The translations under genes and the position numbers were made by a program. This document shows positions 3,229 to 37,265 of a DNA stretch of 64,000 nucleotides, in pieces. Position 1 is the first letter of the stretch; every line of letters begins with the position of its first letter. Under the pieces are notes generated by a model, which did no database searches, was not told the origin of the DNA, and saw only the letters and a program-made list of their open reading frames with translations. The stretch comes from Hydrolagus colliei (taxonomy: Eukaryota), in NCBI GenBank assembly GCA_035084275.1, contig CM068745.1:51708001-51772000 (forward strand), given 5' to 3'.

Positions 3229-4756
3229 TGTGAATGCCATACAAGAAGGTAGAACTCACCATACAATCCCCTACAATCAAATAGCCTGCCTAACTTGTCA
3301 GTCAAAGCTCACACAAGAATAAGGGATACCGGGCAAGGAATGAGGGATTCATGTCGGAACATGACATAGGCTGAAGGAAGCAGGAGTTAAAAATTTTTTA
3401 CCCTTGGGAGAGGCAAAATTAGCAAGAACGAAAATGGTAAACACACAGGGCAAGTCACTCAACAGGAATCTCTCTCACACACACACCAATATGTTGTAAC
3501 CTTTTAAACTAGTAAAACATCTCATACTCTGAACTTAAAAAAATTCTGCAGTCTCAAAAGGCAGGTTATAAAACAATAGCAATTGAAAAATAGCCAGAGA
3601 CAAACAGGATAGATCAATATCAATCAAACAAATGTTTTCAATTGTATAATAATAATCCTTGCAGAAGGCAAAGTACTGCAGAAGCTGGAAATTTGGTACA
3701 AACACAGAATTTGCTGGGAACACGCAGAAGGTCACTGACGTTAACTTATTTCCCTCTCTCCATAGATGCTGCCTACCTCGCAGTTCATGCTAAGTAAACT
3801 AAAGCATGTGTGTGGATTTAGGAAACATTCTCAGTTTCTCCTGATGTCCTGGCCAACAATTCTCTTGGTAAAATTTGACTGTTTGCTGAACATTGGCGCT
3901 TATGTGTTCTTCCGGTACCATGTTCTCCCATGGCAACAAATACAGTCAGTACACTTTACAGAAAGCAACTGGGAAGAACATTGAGATGTTGATGTGATAA
4001 AGAGCCACATCACATGCAAGTTTTTTTTATTATTACTACATGGGTCAGGATCATTTACATGGTTTTTTTTGGTCAGTTGGGTATCTCCAACGCATGAAGA
4101 AACCCATTGCCATGATAGGATATACTATAAGTATCCAAATCAGACAGAGTTCCTTCCATGTGCGCCACCTAAAATGGAAGTTCCTTATCTGAAATGAATG
4201 TCCACTTTCTCCTAAAAGGAACACACTAGGTTTGCCTAATTCTGGAGAGTATTAGGTGCAGGTTGGCTAAGAAAACACTTGACGACCAAGAAGTTATTTT
4301 GGGGTACTGTTGGAGTATAACCAGCTAAAACTGCATAGCTTGTTATTGAGCTTCATAGTGCTTGTTAAGATAGGACCACCCAACCTGTTAAGGCTGTGGG
4401 TTGCAGCATTTGGCTTCCATATTAATTTAGTCTCCATCTCCCCACCCCAGCTCAGATTCTCAGCGAGGAATGTTAAGCAGTTGTTAAGAATTCCACCTGA
4501 TGTGTATAATGCTACATAAAATGAACAGCACAGCAGCTAAATGTAGCTAGATCTTAAAATCAACCTCTACCTATTAACAGCATTTGTATTTATTATAGAG
4601 ACCGTGAAAGTCATTTATGTCTCAGTATACAACTCCATATTCTCCAGCACACATAGGATCCTCTAGGCATATTGATAAGACACTCATTTCCAAACTACTG
4701 TACTTTTATAAAAAAGTAACAATAAGACAGTAATAAAATACCAGCACTGCAAGGAA

Positions 4757-6355
4757 CTATAAAATGAAACAATAACAGAAATCGCTGGGAACACTCAGCA
4801 GGTCAGGAGCATCTATGGAGAAAGGAAAGTGAGTCCACATTTCGGGTCCACAACCCTTCGTTAGAACTGGGGCATGTTGGGAGGGAGAGGTTTTTAAAAA
4901 CTGGCAAAGAGGCAAGGAAAGGAAGACAAAGGAGAAAATGGGGGTAGAGGACAGGAGATGATGGGTTAAAGAGGTGTTAATGCTGTAAAACAAATACAAA
5001 AATGGGAGGGGTTGCAACAAAACTGGAGAGACGAGGTGTTAATAATGTTGAACAAAGGGGGAGAGAAATTGCAAAAGGACAGGCAGATCAGATGGTGAGA
5101 GAAGAGGGGTAGAGGAAAGATGAGCTGTTACAGCCTGAAATAATTGAAATCATTGAGGCCAGAGGGCTGTAAGGGCCCCAGCAGATAGATAAGGTGCTGT
5201 TCCTCGAGCTTGCACTGCGGTTCATTGGAACAGTGTAGTAGACCATGGAGACTGCAAGTGGGAAGGAAAGTTGAAATGGCACAAAACCAGTAGATCAGGG
5301 ATGTCAGCCTGCCTGTCAGACATCAGGAGCTGGATGAGTGCAAATTTCTTGCAGCTGAATGTTGACAAGACGGAGGCCATACTCTTTAGCTCTCATCAAC
5401 GTCTCCATTTGCATGGCTCTCACCAACTCCACCTTTCTGGTCTGCCCCTAAAACTCTCCGAACCTGTACGCAACCTAGGCGTCAGGTTCGACCCCCAACT
5501 GTCCACTAAAAGCCACTGAAACCCTGGTCCATGCCTTTCTCACCTCATGGCTGGACTATTCCAATGCCTTCCTCGCCAGTCTCCTCTCCACCACAATCCA
5601 TAAAATCCAACTCATTCAAAACTCTGCCGCCCGCATACTCACCCGCACCAAACTTCGCTCCCCCATTACCCCAGGGATCCCAAAGAGGATCAACTTCAAG
5701 ATCCGCACCCTTGTGTTCAAATTCCTCCACTCCTCTGCACCTCTAACTTTCTGACCTCTCTCCTCAAATCAGTTCCCACTGCCTTCACTCCACTGGGTCT
5801 GGTCTCCTCCATGTCCCCCGAATCCTCTGCTCCACCCTCGGCGACCGTGCCTTCAGCCACTATGCCTCGAGGCTCTGGAATTCCCTTCCTCACTACCTTC
5901 GCCTTGCCCCCTCTTTTTTCAGCTTCGGGTCCCAGCTGAAGACCTTCCTCTTCGACCGTGCCTTTGGTCACCTTTCTACCCCTGCCTCTGAGATGCTGTC
6001 CGGTGTGGAAGGCGCTATATAAATCAAAGTTGTTGTTGTTGACAGAAGCCTGGAAGGAGGTGAAAAGGCAAGTATTGCACCTCGTGCGCTGGCATGAGAA
6101 GGTGCCAGGGGAACAAGAGCAACTGTTGGTGTTGATGGAGGAATAAACCAAGGAGTCACGGAGGGAATGGTCCCTTTGGAATGCTGAGAGGAGGCAAATA
6201 TATGCTTTGTGATTGGGTCACATTGGAGATGCCGGAAATGGTGGAGAATTATGCATTGGATATCGAGGCTGGTGTGCTGGAATGTGAGGACTAGGGGGAC
6301 CCTATCAAGGTTCAAGGAAGAGGGGGAATGGGTGAGAGTAGAGATGTGGAGGTCC
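4757..6355 (-). mobile_element. Penelope-like element fragment (GIY-YIG region and 3' end), interrupted by an L2 insertion
   Basis: DRVPLVLTF..., PGTFSCQRTRCNTC and GLLHCSNEPQCKLEEQHLIYLLGPLQPSGLN translations; terminal repeat with hammerhead-like motif at 4832-4868. Confidence 0.8.
5301..6040 (+). mobile_element. L2-clade LINE 3' fragment
   Basis: CLSDIRSWMSANFLQLNVDKTEAILF...VRNLGVRFD; ends GGCGCTATATAAATCAAAG(TTG)n. Confidence 0.9.
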
Positions 6356-8122
6356 ATTCTTTTGTTCGAGTTACTATCAAATAATTCTGTTTTATAGAGC
6401 ATTCATTGAAAGTTCAGGGACCAATGCTGTCCCATTCCCACACTGAAAACATGCAATTCAGAACACTGAACATGAATTCCTTCAGTTAGTGTTTACCCTC
6501 TTCACACCCACTGAAAAATAAATGGGAATCTTTGAACCATTAACCATCTATTGTTTAACATTAAACCAGCATTACAATAAAGATAACTAGTAAACAAGGC
6601 AATGGTTCTTATTTCTTGGGGGATTTTTCTGGCGGGCAAACTTGAACCAGGTACCATCACTAACCAGCAGTCCAATGCTGGGTTCTTGACTTCATGGATG
6701 TTGCAAATCAGAATGTCCTCTCTAAGTGCTTTACAGGAAACACTTGAATGCAGTGACTGTGTGGTGTGTACAGCTACTGTTCCAGCTGACCATCAGTCCA
6801 CATCAGCTATTTGCAAAACCCCCAAAATCCTTGAACAAAGCAATTGTGTCCCACAATAGTTTAAGAATTCAGAATTAAGATTACTATTGAAGCTGATTAC
6901 TATTGAAGCTAAACAAATCCAATATTTCTTGGGTTAGATCATGGAAATATCTGTATACAATTTTAAAAATATTTCAGTGATAACACACTGCTTCTCCTGA
7001 GAAAGCATTCCCATCAGAAGAAAACAGACTGAACGCTCCCTGCAAATTTGCAAAACAACAATACAATAGTGTTGCAGATTAGTCCCATGGAAACACCACC
7101 CCACCCAACTGTAAATCAAAATACTGTAGCTATCAACAAAGAATTGCAACATTTACCGTGACAAATCAAGAATTCGGAAAATGCTGTGGTACAGAAAGAG
7201 AAACAAAGATGGGTCATTTGATTACCTTTTTTTTAGTGGGGGGGGGGGGGAAGAGAGAGGAAAGAAAGAGTAAGAAAATAGATCAAAATTTCTAACTCTC
7301 AATAGAATTATTATCTGAACCTGGTTCACAAAGCAATGTGCTTTCAGTGCTGCTACTCAGCTGTTACAAAACGGGCAGCTGTAATCACCGTCTGCCTGCA
7401 ATCGTATCACAGAATCACAGCGATTCCAAACAAATTGGAGTGAACAAGAAACCTACAGTGATTGAACACTTCTCCGCGGTTTCTAAAAAAGAAGTTGGGT
7501 GTCAGCCTGCCTCAGCTGGTGGCACTCTTGCCTCTAAATCAGAAAGTTGTGGGTTCAATTCCCCACATAAGGACTCGGAGCTGGTCTCGGCTGACCCACC
7601 TCGTGCAAAAGAAGTTAGAGGATGAGATGTTAAGTCCCAAGGGATGGACGGCACTTACCACAATGCAGCGCGCCCCCAACACAGCACTGGAGTGAGGGTC
7701 CAGCTTGAATTACATCTTTCTGATTTAAAAGGTGATAATGCTACCAACTGAACCAGGCTAACAACATATACAAATAACTTTTAAATCCACAATCACCAAT
7801 GACAATGACAAACATACAGTATACAGTGAAAAATTTAACTCTCATCTCTCTTCAACTGAAGACACTAACTTATGGTTAGGTGCAGTTTCATGGTGGGGAC
7901 AGCCCTCAAATATCTTAGCCAAAAAGCTATTTTTGTGGACAAGCCTTCACGGCATTGTGATGGAGAAACCAGTCAAGCTCAAAACAACCTCACCCACTAT
8001 CCAGTCATCAAGAAAAAATATATAGCTTGATTTTCCTCAATTCCACCCTTCCCTGGGGTCTTGAGCCAATTATGACTACACCAGCATTGCACTGAAATTA
8101 GCTAATCAGAGCTGAAATCTTC

Positions 8123-8269
8123 TAGTGGGTTGTGACGAAGGGTCATGGACCTGAAAAATTGACTCACTTTCCTTTCTCCATAGATGCTGCCTGACCTGCT
8201 GAGTTTTCCCAGCTCTCTCTGTTTTTGTTTCAGATTTCCAACATCTGTAGTATTTTGTGTTTTGTTCAT
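8123..8269 (+). mobile_element. Short Penelope terminal-repeat unit with hammerhead-like motif
   Basis: Homologous to 4760-4868; flanked by 11-bp direct repeat CTGAAATCTTC (8112-8122, 8270-8280). Confidence 0.8.
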
Positions 8270-8534
8270 CTGAAATCTTCAAGGTTTGAGATGCAGAGAA
8301 CAAGGACTAAATAGCTGATAATTCACCCACTAATAACACAGATTGGGCAACGCATGTAAAGCAGGCTAAGCAGGATGGAAGGAGTGACCAGGTAGTAGGG
8401 GTGTAGGAGTTCGCAATGACATTGAAGGATTTGAATGAGCGGAAGAGGATTTTGAATTCAATCTGCTGGGAGATGGCAAGCCAGTGGAGCCAAGCGATGG
8501 TAAATAACCCTTAAATTTTGGTATTGTGTTTTGC

Positions 8535-19342: not shown

Positions 19343-19440
19343 GAACTGACAAAGGGTCGTGGACCCAAAGTTTGCCTCACTCACTTTCCTTTCTCCATAG
19401 ATGCTGCTGAGTGTTCCCAGCGATTTCTGTTTTTGTTTCA
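19343..19440 (+). mobile_element. Short Penelope terminal-repeat unit (degenerate)
   Basis: CTGACAAAGGGTCGTGGACCC...CTTTCCTTTCTCCATAGATGCTG...CCCAGCGATTTCTG; same family as the other copies. Confidence 0.7.
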
Positions 19441-22207
19441 AATGAAAATTATATCTTGATCAGCCTATGTTCAAGCCCAAATTTTCAGAAAGAAACCATT
19501 TACTGCATCACCAGTCAGAAGATGTATCAAGCTAGGAAAATAGCTATACAACATCTTGCCTTTTAAATTACCACTCTTCAGCCAAGCAAGGCAATTGATT
19601 TACGTTGTGCAAGCTTGCCATTTACTCCTGCACTATTCATCGATGGCAGCACTCTTTTGAAGTCTTCCGCTATAAACTAGCTTAATCAGGGAGCTTGTAT
19701 TTGTTAATTACCAACCCTTTCCTCTCTGCCTCCCCTCAATACATTAGTCACTCTCTGGGTACACATCTACTGCAACAACAAAATTTGATTTGTATAGCAC
19801 CTTTTACATCGGGAGGACGCCACAAGGCACTGGACAGATAGTATTCTAACAACAACAACATTACATTTATAGAGCACCTTTTCACGTCAGGAGGAAATTT
19901 ATATCCTATATCCTAAGAGCGGATCACTGTTTTAAAATCACCATTGTTTAGCTGTTACTGATCCTTGTAAAAACTGCACAGCATTCCCAAACTTGATTCA
20001 AATATATTTGGTGATCCTGTGTTTCATGGCACTAGGAAGTTAATAATTAATTTTTTTTTAAGTTTTAAGGATTTTACTTTGAAATACATTGATTAGGTAT
20101 TTGTAAGCAAATATATTGCACCTCCATAATGCACGCTTACACACACAAAAACTATGTCTTGATTTGGACTTTGGAAATCTGTTTAGCTGAGTGTCTAGAA
20201 GTACACATAAATAATTGTTCTGTTGAATGATTCACGGATCTAAAAACATTCAATCACCTATTGCAAACAGTTTAGTGCATTCCAATGGATTGCAAAATTT
20301 GGTAAAGCCAAACATAGGAAGGTGATGGGAAAAATGGAGAGTCAATTAAAACCATTTAATAATATTCCTTGCATTTTATGTAACGCTTTTTACGTCTTTG
20401 AGACATCTCAATATACTGTATAGTAAATTGACTCAAAAAATCATTTGTTAAGAAATGTACAAAAGGCATATACATAACTTTTTTTTAAGTTGCAATTCAA
20501 CGTACAAATGCAACAACCTAGTTTTCCCCAGAAATATTGCATACAACACAAAGGAAAGTGCAAAATTGCAAGTTATATATTTCAGTGTACAGAGTAATTA
20601 ATTGTTGCATTTTCTCCTTCAAAACAATTTTTGCTTGTTTTCTAAATAAATTGGCATTTACCATGAAAAGGCCTCATAATTCCCAAACCCAAATCTCACA
20701 TACCGGTAATCCAAATGCAAGCATTGAGTATCTGTGCTGACATTTCTTGCTGAAGTGAATAAATCCAAAGATTATTTAACTTTGCACTACCTGAGCCCAA
20801 GATACATTTTATTCATCCATCAGTGATTCCCAAGGCTATCCAAACAGCAATGCAAAATGTTTTCAAGCCAGTCAACATTTTGTACTAGTTTCCACTACTT
20901 GCTGTAAAAGTGCATAATAAACAGTTTTGATTTTTGCAAAATACCCCAGGACAAAAAGATAATGGAAACGTATTGCACAAAATTGCCCCTATAACCACTG
21001 GCAGGCAATTAGCATGACAAAGCACTAAATTGTCAAATCGACAAACCCACAGACATTGCAAATCAGATCTTTGCAAAGAATTAAATTATCCAATGCAGAA
21101 CACTCCCCCATCCCCGTTTATGTAAATAGTTCTGTTTGCGCCGTCAAATTCCAACATTCCAGTCAATTGGGTGAACAAAAAACGATTGACATTAACCTTG
21201 TATGGAAAGCCTCACAACAAGTCATTGTTTAAACCCCAGGAGGCACCAATCACTTCACAGTGTTGTCCAACAAGCTGATAACAGCAGAACAATGGGACCA
21301 GGCCAGTGCTATGATGGTTCCCACGTAGTGCATGCAAGCCTGCGCTTTATATTGAAATACAATATGGGCATTTACACGCAGTTAAACAGCATTTTGTTCT
21401 CATTTCCCAGTATCATTGAAATGAAATGAACAATTCAGAAGTCCGAATTTGTGATGCATCTGATTCTCTCCATAATAAAAGCTTTGCTGTGTTATATTCC
21501 ACCAAAATAAATATATTGGCACTCGACAGTCAAAATGTATTATCAAAAAGCAAAAATCCAAATATGAGCAAAAACACTGAACTAATGTAACAACTTCATG
21601 CATTAAAATACAGATAATTATAATCCATCTCTGCACATCTGAATTTACAAGATGTGTGTGTATAAAACAAGTGGTTATTTAGTGTTTCCACATGTTCCCC
21701 TTCTTTCTCATTCTCAAAGTTTTTTTTTAGCATCTGTCCTTACCCCCACAAAGAGGTTAGGCTGCAGGGGACAATTAACCCAAACCAGTTTTCAGGCTGT
21801 GCCAGCAATGGAATGCAGAAAAACACATAAACCATTTGTCAGAAAACACACGCTCTGCCAACCGTTACAGTGACAAAATCTTCAATTTTTCATACAATCT
21901 CCTTGTATGGGATCACTGGATTTGCTCACTCACTAAAATAGAATTAAAGTAATGATAAGGGTATAAATAGCAGATTTGCACGCATATTCCATATTTTGTG
22001 CTAAAACTTCTAAGTTTATAAACAAAACCAGCAAGCTTTATGCAGAAGGTAAAGCATCTTAACTAGGAATCTGCTCCATTGGTGTCCCATCATCAAATGG
22101 TTTGATTTAAATTTTTTATGGGAGGTGGGAAAGTAATCAATGCATGCATGTTTTTGAAGCTACAAATAATTAGATTTAAAAGACAGGATAGGGCATTATA
22201 TTCTGTA

Positions 22208-22525
22208 GAGTCCTGTAGCTCAGTGGTTGGAGCCTTGCAAGCGAGAGATCTGGGTTCAATTCCAGGCATGGCAAAACCTTGGTCAAGTTTCCTTACTCCA
22301 CATGCCCGGTGATATTCTATAAAGAAAAAAAAATTGGGTCATTTTAATCCACGACTGTTTGTGGGACACTGCTGTGCACATTTGGCTGCCACATTTCACC
22401 CACAAATATGCAGTCTACCTGCTTTACAATATATTCTGTAATTCACTTTTAAATGTCTAGAAGATGTAAAAAGCAATATTTCAAATGCAAGGATTATTAT
22501 ATCAAATGCAAGGATTATTATTATT
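22208..22525 (+). mobile_element. tRNA-derived SINE with Deu-like core and (ATT)n tail
   Basis: A box TAGCTCAGTGG, B box GGTTCAATTCC, core GTTTGTGGGACACTGCTGTGCACATTTGGCTGCC, duplicated tail TCAAATGCAAGGATTATTA. Confidence 0.85.
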
Positions 22526-29236: not shown

Positions 29237-30330
29237 CAACAACAAAATTCCATTTATATAGCGCCTTTCACTTTGGGAGGACGTTCCAAGGCACTGAATA
29301 GTTGGTGTTTCAGACCCGCGTTGGGGTCGGGATCAAAGAAAGTAGAGGGAATTGGGAAAACCCGGCGGTATGGTTGAAAAAGAGTCTTGGGGTAGGACTT
29401 GAAGGAGGCTAGGGAAGGGGCGAGGTGGAGGGATTGCGGGATGGAATTTCAACTGTTGGGTCAGAGTGGCTGAAGGCTCACCTGACAATGATGGGGCAGG
29501 AGATGTGGAACAACAACAAAAATGTATTTATAGAGTGCCTTTCACATTGAGAGGACATCCCAAGGCACTGAACAGACAGGTTGGGACCCAAGCAAGGGAG
29601 AGGGGCAGGGTAGGGAGGAGTGTTGGGAGAGTTAGGAGGGGTGGGAGATAGTTGGGAGAGCAGCGGAAGGCATAGTTGAAGAGAAGGATCTTTAGATCAG
29701 CCTTGAAAGAGGTGAGGGACGGACTGTGGGATGGAGTTCCAGAGTGTGGGGGCAGAGGATGAAAGCCCATCTGTCGATAGTAGAGCGGGTCAGGCGGGGG
29801 ACATGGAGCAGGCCGGAGCCCGCTGAACAGAGGGGGTGGGGAGGTTCATAGGGGACAGCAAGTCAGTGAGGCAGGGGGCACGGCAAGGCCGTGAATGGCC
29901 TTGATAATGAGGACGAGGATCTTGAATTCGAGCCATGTAACAGGCCATAGCCTGCTGGGTGAAGGGAATGGACAGGTTGGTAGGCAAACAAAAACAGAGC
30001 GAGCTGGGAAAACTCAGCAGGTCAGGCAGCATCTATAGAGAAAGGAAAGTGAGTCAACACTTCGGGTCCATGAACCTTCGTCAGAACTGGTTGGTAGGGG
30101 GTGAGGAGGTCACAGAGGTAGGGGAGGGCGGCAAGGACATGGAGGGCTTTGAAAGCAAGGACCAGGATCTTGAATTGAATCCTTTGTGTGGTAGGAAGCT
30201 GGTGGGAGTCAGGTGAGGATGGGGGATGCAGGAGAGGACACAGGTGCAGAATTCTGGATTATTTGCAGCCTATGAAGGGAGGAATTGGGGAGGCCAACAA
30301 GCAGGGAGTGGCATAGTTGAGCAAGTTAAA
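29237..30330 (-). mobile_element. Two or more tandem L2 3' fragments
   Basis: (CAA)n tails at 29237 and 29509, each followed by L2 3' sequence; contains the Penelope mini-insertion. Confidence 0.75.
29985..30088 (-). mobile_element. Short Penelope terminal-repeat unit with hammerhead-like motif, inserted in L2
   Basis: Homologous to 4760-4868; flanked by 10-bp direct repeat GGTTGGTAGG (29975-29984, 30089-30098). Confidence 0.82.
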
Positions 30331-33812: not shown

Positions 33813-36715
33813 TCAATCCCACTGCCCTGCCCGCTCCCCATAGCCTAATAGACCTGTTCTCCCTAAATAAAGATCTAATTCCCTTTTAAAAGTTGTTATC
33901 GAATCAGTCTCCACCACCTTTTCAGGCAATGCATTCCAGATTCGAACAACTCGCTGAGTGAAAACATTTCTCCTCAGATCCCCTCTACTTCGCCTTGAAA
34001 CTATTTTAAATCTGTGACCACGAGTCACAGATTCGTCCACGAGTGGAAATAGTTTTTCTCTATTTGCCCTGTCGAAACCCCTCATGATCTTATAAACCTC
34101 TATTAGGTCTCTCCTCAATCTTCTCTGTTCCAGAGAGAATAACCCTAGCCTATCTAGCCTCTCCTCATAGCTGAAGTCCCTCAATCCTGGCACCATCCTA
34201 GTAAATCTTCGCTGCACCCTTTCCAATGCCTTCACATCCTTTCTGTAGTGTGGTGACCAGAATTGAACACAGTATTCCAGCTGAGGCCTCACCAAAGTCT
34301 TATAGAGGTTAGTCAGCACTTCCTGACTTTTGTACTCTATACCCCTATTTATAAAGCCTAGTATCCCATATGCCTTCTTAACAGCCTTGTCTACCTGTCC
34401 TGCCACCTTCAACGAGTCACTAACACAAATCCCCAGGTCTCTCTGTTCCTTCACACCATTTAAAATTGTACTATCTAGCCTATATTGCCTCCCTTCATTT
34501 CTTCTCCCAAAATGCATCACCTCACACTTCTCTGCATTAAACTTCATCTGCCATGTGTCTGCCCACTTTACCATTTGTCTATATCCTCTTGCAGAAAGAT
34601 ACTATCCTCCTCACTATTTACTGTTCTCCCTAACTTAGTGTCATCTGCAAACTTGGAAACTGTACTCCGTACACCCAAGTCCAGATCATTGATGTAGATT
34701 ACAAACAGCAATGGTCCCAAAACCGATCCCTGTGGCACACCACTGCTCACTTCCCTCCAGTCTGAAAAACAGCCGCTCACTACAACTCTCTGCTTTCTGT
34801 CTCGCAGCCAGTTGTGGATCCACGCTGCCACTGTCCCTTTTACGCCATGGGCCTTTAATTTCATAATAAGTCTCTGGCACTTTGTCAAATGCCTTTTGAA
34901 AGTCCATGTAAACTACATCAACTGCGCTACCATTATCCACCCATTCCGTTACCTCATCAAAAAATTCTATCAGATTTGTAAGGCAAGATTTGCCTTTAAC
35001 AAATCCATGTTGACTGTCCTTTATTAGCCTATATCTTTCTAAGTGAAGATCTACCTTGTCCCTGATTATGGACTCTAGAAGTTTGCCCACTACCGACGTT
35101 AGACTGACTGGTCTGTAGTTACCAGGCTTGTCCTTCTGCCCCTTTTTATACAAGGGAGTAACATTAGCTATCCTCCAGTCCTCTGGCACGACCCCTGTGT
35201 CCAAGGAAGATTGAAAGATCGTGGCCAGAGTCCCTGCTATTTGCTCCCGTGCCTCACTTAGTAACCTAGGGTGCATCCCATCCGGACCAGGTGACTTATC
35301 CACCTTGAGCGACGTCAACCTTTTTAGAACTTCCTCTCTGGTTATAATTATTCTATCCATTTCTCCTACCCTCTCCTCCAATACCATGGCATTGGCTGTA
35401 TCCTTTTCTTTTGTGAAGACAGAGGCGAAGTACTCATTCAGTACATCAGCCATGCCCTCTGCCTCCACAATGAGATTTCCTCCTAGGTCCCTAATTGGCC
35501 CCACCCCATCCTTGACCAACCTTTTACTCTTAATATGTTGGTAAAAAACCTTAGGGTTCTCCTTAATCTTACTCGCTAATTGTTTTTCATGCAGTCTCTT
35601 TGCCCCTCTAACTTCCTTTTTTAGTTCTATCCTACACTTCCTATATTCTGCTTGGTTCCCTTCTGAATTTTGAGCCTGACACTTATCATAAGCCTCTTTT
35701 TTTTGTTTTATTTTGGCCCCGATTTCCTTAGTCACCCAGGGAGGTTTGGATGCCTTACATTTCACCTTTGTGGGGATGCTTTTGACCTGTGCCTGAACTA
35801 TCTCCTCTTTGAACGCTGCCCACTGCTCGTTAGTTGTCTTACCTGCCACTTTTTCTTTCCAATCCACCTTGGCTAGGTCCCACCTCAACTCATTGAAATT
35901 AGCCCTTTTCCAGTTGAGTGTCCTCACCTGTGATCGTTCCTTATCCCTTTCCATAATTATTCTGAATCTAACGATATTGTGGTCACTATTCCCTAGATGC
36001 TCACCTACAGAAACCTGTTGAACTTGCCCTACCTCATTTCCCCAAACTAGATCCAGCAATGCTTCTTTCCTCGTTGGACTGGAAACATACTGATCAAGAA
36101 AGTTGTCCTGCACACACTTCAGGAATTCTTCTCCCTCCTTGTCCTTTACTCTACTATTCTGCCAGTCTATGTTGGGATAGTTGAAGTCACCCATTATCAC
36201 TGCTCTATTAGCTCTGCATTTCTCCGTGATACGCTTGCAGATCTGCTTGTCTATCTCCTCCCCACTATTTGGTGGTCTATAGTAAACCCCTAACAGTGTA
36301 ACTGCACCTTTTTTATTCCTCATTTCAAACCAGATAGATTCGGTTTTTAGTCCTTCTTCCACCTCGTTCCTTTCTAAGGCAGTCACTGAGTCCTTAACTA
36401 AAATTGCCACCCCGCCCCCTTTTCTCCCTTCTCTATCCCTCCTGAATACATTATAACCAGGAATGTTCAACTCCCATTCCTGCCCATGCTTGAGCCAAGT
36501 CTCTGTTACTGCTATAACATCATATCGCCTCGCAGCAACCTGAGCCTGCAGCTCACCAATTTTATTTCTCAAACTTTGTGTATTTACATACATGCACTCT
36601 AAGGCACAAATTACTTCCTCTGCACTTTTCTCCCGTCTTACCCTTACCCCTGTCCTCTTTGTTACCCCTCCCGTATCTGAACTACTGTTCAGTTTCCCAC
36701 CCTCACCCCCCGGGA
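33813..36715 (-). pseudogene. CR1 ORF2 (endonuclease + reverse transcriptase) broken by two frameshifts
   Basis: Motifs VTETW, YRPP, GDFN, SDH, KSPGPDG, NYRPVSL, DFQKAFD, GVPQGSVLGP, FADD across three consecutive ORFs; frameshifts near 34877 and 34573. Confidence 0.93.
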
Positions 36716-37010
36716 TTAGTTTAAAGCCCCCCCCACAAAACTCGACAACCTCCCTGCAAGGAGATTGGTTCCAGCCCTGTTCAGGTGTAACCCATCCATT
36801 TTGTACAGGTTCCACCTACCCCAGAATTGGTCCCAATGGTCTAGGAACCAGAAACCCTCCTTCCTACACCACTTCTCCAGCCATGCATTGATGTGCCTTA
36901 TTCTAGCATTCTGGAACTGGCTTGCTCGAGGCACTGGAAGCAACCCAGAGATCACCACTCTCGAAGTTCCACTTTTCAGTTTACTCCCTAGTCTCTGGTA
37001 CTCTTTGCAC
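36716..37010 (-). pseudogene. CR1 ORF1 C-terminal fragment (SGNH/esterase-like)
   Basis: SRVVISGLLPVPRA...NAWLEKWCRKEGFWFLDHW...DGLHLNRAGT, typical CR1 ORF1 end. Confidence 0.85.
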
Positions 37011-37136
37011 ACATAACTGCTGCCCATCACAAGGGAAATCAGGATCAGTGTCTGTGGTGAAAACTGGCTCACCAACGCTGGAATAACTCACCCAAGGCAA
37101 GTCAGTGATTGGAATTCTCCACCTCTGTTTTGCAAT

Positions 37137-37265
37137 GGAGTCCTGTAAATCAGTGGTTAAAGCACTCGCCTTGGAAGCGAGAGCCCTGGGTTCAATTGCA
37201 GGCAGGGCGAAACCTTGGAAAGTTTTCTTATTCCACGCCTGATGATAATCCCTCAGGGGAAAAAA
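37137..37265 (+). mobile_element. SINE 5' head (tRNA-Ala-like)
   Basis: A/B-box-like motifs followed by the SINE body also seen at 22270 and 63060. Confidence 0.75.

Follow-up and report, generated by a model that had tools for sequence, protein, structure and literature searches.

What kind of repeat is a 147-bp insert that begins like a hammerhead ribozyme and carries its own target-site duplication? The window analysed here, a stretch of 64,000 nucleotides from Hydrolagus colliei (contig CM068745.1, positions 51,708,001 to 51,772,000), contains such an insert at 8112–8280. The original prediction saw in it a member of a non-autonomous SINE- or retrozyme-like family riding Penelope machinery. 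Our analysis places it among thousands of short sequences copied from the 5' part of a Penelope-like element (PLE): as judged from its sequence, the insert is the first ~143 nt of the full-length element.

A decayed hammerhead motif at the start of the insert

Positions are numbered from the first base of hammerhead helix I, +1 corresponding to 8128 in the window (Table 1). The direct repeat around the insert is, as predicted, exact over 11 bp, and it extends to 14 bp with one mismatch. Insert and duplication are real, but the element does not begin at 8123 as had been proposed: its true start is 8128/8129, bases 8123–8127 being junction or target bases, and a cap-derived G may be among those at 8123–8128. 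At the other end, the tail agrees with the continuing sequence of full-length PLEs. The letters of the motif read as originally described, with a helix I of 4 bp (including one U.G pair), a helix II of 5 bp and a 2-nt palindromic helix III. Core C3 is replaced by G (8132) and 15.2/16.2 by AA (8157–8158), and the ribozyme core of this copy, with its predicted cut site after 8160, is broken.

The ancestral motif that had been deduced from the window copies coincides with the majority base at every position from +1 to +37 over 370 arms, taken from all fetched loci. This includes the CpG at +30/+31, which had been inferred from TG decay, and the U at the cleavage site, which is the state of the master and not a product of decay (90/91 arms of the old and 58/58 of the young subfamily). 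The family master has the core, the pairing and the palindromic helix III of a PLE-type minimal type I hammerhead, and a pattern requiring an intact core plus palindromic helix III had 3230 matches in the genome versus 5 for its reversed control. Helix I and II columns are 91–96% paired across arms. Among copies, each helix I/II pair shows only 0–4 two-sided changes, a near-absence of covariation that is as expected for neutral decay; the master changes are one-sided and compatible with pairing. A scan of the window with Rfam retrieved no hammerhead family at E ≤ 5, Rfam gave no match for the 147-bp unit, and none of the window copies passed a minimal-hammerhead descriptor. The younger subfamily (L323–L352, L293–L322) has a U17.G21 pair in helix II.

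The family shares with the minimal type I hammerheads of PLEs a short helix I, an unpaired base before helix II, the G10.1–C11.1 pair, palindromic 15.2–16.2, and an occurrence mostly as single dispersed copies or close opposite-strand pairs. It differs from them in the U at position 17 of the master and in a helix I that begins at the inferred transcript start. The accessible portions of earlier accounts attribute such mostly single, dispersed motifs to truncation (PMC4209133, PMC6155905, PMC6765202, PMC2377424).

Table 1 Features of the insert and related copies in the window.
Feature	Position	Strand	Remarks
Left target-site duplication	8112..8122	+	perfect over 11 bp; one mismatch if extended to 8125
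5' junction bases	8123..8128	+	the last two are GG; alignment to the element starts at 8129 (+2)
Decayed minimal type I hammerhead motif	8128..8164	+	+1..+37
Start of the 5' reading frame of the element: ATG and first codons, MLPDLL	8184..8202	+	frames of near-full-length copies
GT, candidate weak splice donor	8203-8204	+	
U-rich first 3'-end cluster of the family	8226..8237	+	+99..+110; putative first RT priming site
30–40 nt PLE 'tail'	8238..8269	+	without poly(A); putative second RT priming site
Right target-site duplication	8270..8280	+	to 8283 with one mismatch
5'-truncated, interrupted long copy, same PLE family	4765..6350	-	
Short tailless copy (-2..+104)	29986..30090	-	13-bp duplication at 29972-29984 and 30086-30098
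Short tailless copy, start near +5 behind a few inverted bases	19346..19443	+	no duplication found
Head-to-head unit, older related family	3669..3778	.	tailed arm minus, short arm plus

Short insertions have fixed ends and their own duplications

BLAST of the window recovered all four copies that had been named, together with an older, related head-to-head unit; the 3' strand of helix I in this older family is AAC, not GAC. One of the four, at 4765–4868, does not stand alone: it forms the 3' terminus of a long PLE remnant on the minus strand. Its +1 lies at 4868, with TTAAAA at −29 (4897–4892), and it ends at ~+105 without the tail. Upstream of it come a pyrimidine-rich 3' UTR and the C-terminus of the endonuclease, and a broken ORF (remnant at ~6350–6040) with 150 scored genomic relatives. 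A Pfam search of the ORF fragments in the window gave no match for this PLE remnant.

The genome searched comprised 1.0 Gb. Because few copies were present in 20 evenly spaced 10-kb regions (only three contained any), we switched to pattern matches ordered by position. A 41-nt core gave 370 exact matches, and we read the anatomy of the 90 that come first in the genome. They corresponded to 87 insertions, since three matches proved to be the second arm of an insertion already counted. By class, 27 are short solos, 41 are short inverted units and 19 are long, which makes 68 short insertions out of 87.

The claim that the short units were inserted independently is borne out by this sample. Duplications scoring at least 10 flanked 28 of the 87 insertions but only 2 of 257 swapped flanks, and a further tally of solos gave 32/76 and, in the control, 1/225. 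The duplications measure 9–16 bp and are AT-rich (72% versus 58% in the background). Boundaries are not random either, with 5' ends that pile up at the start of helix I and 3' ends at two sites: 38 at +91–110, 48 at +126–140 and none between, a single one being shorter. None of these 3' ends is followed by poly(A); they follow the continuing full-length sequence. A head-to-head inverted arm occurs in 44/87 insertions, and in 34 of these one arm carries the tail and the other does not. The inverted arms are likewise short, with 16/44 ending at −4..+6.

The unit is the front end of an autonomous Penelope-like element

The same unit sits at both ends of the autonomous element, as the 5' start of full-length copies and as the 3' pseudo-LTR (pLTR) of long ones. 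Three copies begin with the unit (L270 at +2, L282 at +1, L290 at +3) and continue through the tail into the ORF, and the unit lies directly before the ORF in copies with an ORF start; another copy (L274) combines a partial tandem and an arm in inverted orientation. RT motifs, DKG and GIY-YIG were found upstream of the same pLTR in L229, L213 and L214, and a Cys-rich linker between RT and endonuclease (EN) could be read in the translations of L229 and L213. The Pfam GIY-YIG match was below the cut-off (E = 9e-4; 19.9 bits versus 22.6) and five of six fragments had no Pfam match, while an Atlas feature search returned PF26215 clusters at 0.96. No homologues of the N-terminal 125 amino acids were detected at E ≤ 0.001. 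On these motifs, the element is an endonuclease-positive (EN+) Penelope-like retrotransposon, with RT followed by a C-terminal GIY-YIG. The available text of PMC8557442 gives a Zn-finger-like linker between RT and EN as a Neptune feature that is common to Nematis, and the Cys-rich linker fits either group.

According to the accessible parts of two descriptions (PMC8557442, PMC3846280), EN+ PLEs of the Neptune/Nematis type share with this element the order of RT and GIY-YIG, the DKG motif and the Cys-rich linker, as well as a 30–40 nt tail on one arm, an inverted arm, partial tandems (as in L274) and duplications of 9–16 bp. The family described here differs from them in that about three quarters of the sampled insertions hold only +1..+143 or less, and in a sharp +1/+2 boundary with an excess of G that we did not find described in the literature searched.

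Among 30 ORF-bearing copies, 6 start at −1..+11, 20 inside +40..+130 and 4 upstream; long copies dwindle fast upstream. Conservation of the TTAAAA at −29 does not exceed that of the adjacent bases. The first ATG of the element is at +57. A GT at +76, if joined to a pyrimidine-rich AG, would bring the MLPDLL frame and the main ORF into phase, which makes the intervening ~95 nt a candidate phase-1 intron that spans both putative priming sites; its donor GT is weak. A search for spliced retrocopies gave 30 matches, all with 2 mismatches, and the three that were read out were ordinary unspliced copies. In four copies (L270, L282, L290 and L274; ~+57 to +175), the MLPDLL frame terminates in a pyrimidine-rich TAG immediately ahead of the main ORF.

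A sharp 5' boundary preceded by an extra G

The forward-arm 5' ends of the 87 insertions distribute very unevenly: 34 lie at −4..+3, 34 at +4..+40, none at −45..−5 and 19 at −46 or beyond. For a genome-wide count of junctions we used a 22-nt 5' motif from one subfamily, which has 2202 exact matches. Identity is lost exactly at +1 or +2 in 1072 of them (461 diverge just before +1 and 611 just before +2), and 1130 keep the C at −1. Among the first 100 listed of the 461, the base before +1 is G in 54, A in 27 and T in 19 (counted by hand; G expected 26%, p = 4e-9); the same position in the younger subfamily, again for the first 100 listed (of 134), has G 47, A 27 and T 26 (p = 7e-6). No such excess precedes +2 (G 29, T 54, C 17 in 100 counted; G in 12/29 unselected arms). 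In arms that had not been selected on their junction, G precedes +1 in 12/16 cases, versus 23/95 and 11/50 at the other junction classes. Six solos have both a mapped duplication and additional bases ahead of +1, and in four of them the last such base, between the duplication and +1, is G. Positions −2 to −6 have no conserved base, flush junctions mostly use target bases, and duplications usually adjoin the junction within a few bases.

An extra G marks the copied cap in full-length L1 insertions (available text of PMC11702581), and the resemblance suggests that the G before +1 may likewise be a copied mRNA cap, with +1 as the putative transcript start. The fixed boundary and the extra G would then point to a capped sense RNA and name one base as its start. 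A +1 boundary with a cap-like G was not found described for PLEs in the literature that we consulted, although subscription papers, Repbase or supplements may hold it. Two poly(A) single-cell runs (one sample, from another organism) and two contig sets contained reads of dispersed copies from both strands; these reads had no shared start or end and were uninformative on the start site of the element.

A host- or element-exon splice leader before +1 was considered and rejected, as there is no shared upstream sequence, and so were copies starting at the ribozyme cut site, as conservation has no step at +33/+34. In the young subfamily the boundary is less sharp, with 8/29 copies starting at −11..−1, and its reference carries a private mismatch at +5 by which nine starts scored as '+6' are overestimated. 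In addition, 5' ends in this subfamily (L323–L352, L293–L322) gather at a second site, around −8. The first ~10 nt of the element are repeated at the 5' junction in 6/152 arms, and such duplications were noted in L295, L296, L306, L311, L316, L318, L322, L160 and L161; this suggests slippage of the cDNA at the template end.

No sign of a separate lineage of short copies

A tree of 232 arms (147 short, 85 long; region +3..+95, only 93 aligned columns, which limits its power) gives no sign of a SINE or retrozyme lineage distinct from the autonomous element, and short and long copies are scattered among each other on it. The label short/long changes 68 times on this tree versus 69.2 ± 3.4 after shuffling (204/500 shuffles as low), whereas the subfamily label, used as control, changes 13 times versus 77.8. 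Every common haplotype has both long and short members and all common subfamily variants are shared. Divergence is slightly lower in short arms than in long ones (3.7% versus 4.6%, p = 0.037), which is partly an effect of sampling by exact match, and a single column, +80, differs between them (p = 0.004, uncorrected, 93 tested). The tandem arrangement of retrozymes is likewise absent from the fetched DNA, because only 2 same-strand pairs closer than 600 nt occurred among 219 core hits; no head-to-tail array was seen there. A separate non-autonomous family is not supported by these results: the unit is the autonomous element's own 5' start.

Origin of the short copies

The identity shared with the autonomous element, the fixed ends, the duplications and the excess of G before +1 together lead us to read the short copies, or stubs, as run-off products. 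We consider it likely that each is a ~143-nt 5' copy of the EN+ PLE, made by internal RT priming on nicked DNA and run off at the end of a probably capped RNA. The main capped Pol II start would be +1, the first base of helix I. The PLE protein would bind U-rich sites ~100 and ~140 nt downstream (+99–110 or +135–143), where RT would prime from nicked, AT-rich target DNA and synthesise cDNAs of 100–140 nt. Such a cDNA would run off the cap and be joined to the target directly or by microhomology of 1–6 nt. One cDNA would give a solo insert like that at 8128. Head-to-head units, in which one arm has the tail and the other lacks it, would arise when synthesis is primed on both DNA strands, and long copies when it is primed within the 3' copy of the unit. 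Such stubs are probably inactive from the moment of insertion, and their formation probably does not require self-cleavage, in agreement with what the accessible text on the anole element reports in vitro (PMC11167929).

Several observations sit uneasily with the run-off reading. Junctions at +2 outnumber those at +1 and lack the G excess; only 6 of the 30 ORF-bearing copies start near +1 (−1..+11); a duplication score of at least 8 was reached by only 9 of the 27 solo short copies; and the young boundary is blurred. The slightly lower divergence of short arms, the difference at +80 and the ordinary conservation of TTAAAA also count against it.

One rival takes +1/+2 for an internal stop on longer templates, either a stall of RT at the hammerhead or a splice acceptor (CAG|TT), with stubs as 5'-truncated hot-spot copies. 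A pyrimidine run ending in CAG does precede helix I in long copies, the Penelope intron of D. virilis ends at the 5' end of helix I in the available part of PMC4209133, one arm of some inverted units ends at +1 while the other extends upstream (L018), and the majority of junctions, those at +2, are without the G excess. We nevertheless regard this rival as unlikely: not one of the 87 insertions ends at −45..−5 in the old subfamily, the G excess is restricted to the base before +1, no upstream exon sequence is shared at −2..−6 and the duplications usually adjoin the junction. Stubs might alternatively be copied from hammerhead-processed or circularised RNA, a notion favoured by the thousands of intact cores with palindromic helix III and by master changes that keep the pairing, such as that from U.G to C–G in helix I (the C4–G34 sub-variant, in 10/58 young versus 1/91 old arms). 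It deserves hardly any credence, however, as the cut lies ~33 nt downstream of helix I, where the copies start, conservation is even across +34 (94, 94, 93 and 97% at +32 to +35), the cut triplet is GUU, and a well-preserved monomer is predicted to misfold, with a non-hammerhead helix in the core (−10.9 versus −8.3 kcal/mol).

A non-autonomous SINE or retrozyme family, self-transcribed from an internal promoter and mobilised by PLE proteins, would account for the preponderance of short insertions (68/87) and for the slightly younger average age of short arms; the accessible sections of two sources add an internal promoter in D. virilis Penelope (PMC2377424) and an origin of vertebrate retrozymes from pLTRs (bioRxiv 10.64898/2026.07.22.740005). 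Yet the short copies have no private lineage and no head-to-tail arrays, and their ends are the PLE's own start and its two priming sites, with no 5' step at the cut site, so that this explanation is quite improbable. Recombination or deletion between two ~143-nt direct repeats would leave solo pLTRs that retain the duplication and the 5' G. Full-length copies beginning at +1..+3 do carry such a direct repeat, and the available text of PMC3846280 suggests a recombination origin in A. vaga. Sequence from beyond the tail, however, had only 45 matches (up to 2 mismatches allowed, and 12 lying within repeated blocks of two contigs) versus the 2202 exact matches to the 5' motif, and relics of this kind are therefore unlikely. 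The fixed ends agree with the earlier view that the units are not deletion relics, long copies dwindle fast upstream, and inverted arms, too, are short and often end near +1 (the 16/44 above). We judge this origin very improbable.

If stubs are run-off products, most insertions would resemble strong-stop cDNAs. In retroviruses, priming near the 5' end of the RNA gives minus-strand strong-stop DNA, a short run-off cDNA of the terminal repeat. The likeness is an analogy and not a membership, since here the primer would be nicked target DNA and the product would be inserted, not transferred. Head-to-head units would then need no antisense template, such as has been proposed for short, inverted, tailed PLE insertions (available text of PMC3846280). 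The closest experimental parallel is Poseidon of the green anole, for which the accessible text of Frangieh et al. 2024 (PMC11167929) describes internal RT priming at two sites, one at either edge of the tail, for both DNA strands and with no need of hammerhead cleavage; AT-rich targets are common to both systems, and so, on the run-off reading, would be an uncleaved RNA template and two internal starts. Poseidon belongs to a different clade, its ORF starts inside the hammerhead, whereas the first ATG lies at +57 here, and genomic run-off stubs and a cap G are not reported in that text. Non-LTR retrozymes and the hammerhead SINE-like elements of Schistosoma, in the available parts of their descriptions (PMC7229834; bioRxiv 10.64898/2026.07.22.740005), are also short, non-coding, of type I hammerhead, related to PLE pLTRs and flanked by duplications of more than 4 bp. 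The stubs differ from retrozymes in the absence of head-to-tail arrays, in a minimal instead of a canonical ribozyme and in having no lineage apart from the autonomous element. Abundant short hammerhead repeats in such genomes, annotators should be warned, need not be SINEs or retrozymes.

More tentatively, stubs might record the copying by the PLE of a capped, sense and uncleaved RNA near its 5' end that is also unspliced, with both priming sites inside the candidate intron and thus present in unspliced RNA only. Were this true, priming limited to unspliced RNA would help to explain why PLEs retain introns.

Other repeats

On each of two contigs, the ORF-start motif occurs six times with ~39-kb spacing and alternating orientation (C29:597023–791132 and C531:145463–339572), an arrangement that reflects either an inverted segmental array of large size or a duplication made in assembly. 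Elsewhere in the window, tRNA-like Rfam matches below the gathering score at 37139–37210 and 22209–22274 are probably SINE heads; ARAGORN predicted no tRNA gene in the whole window. The minus strand at 33816–36815 and 36719–37087 carries a fairly intact LINE, which we take to be of CR1 type, whose ORF2 has endonuclease and RT domains and is preceded by an esterase-like piece of ORF1.
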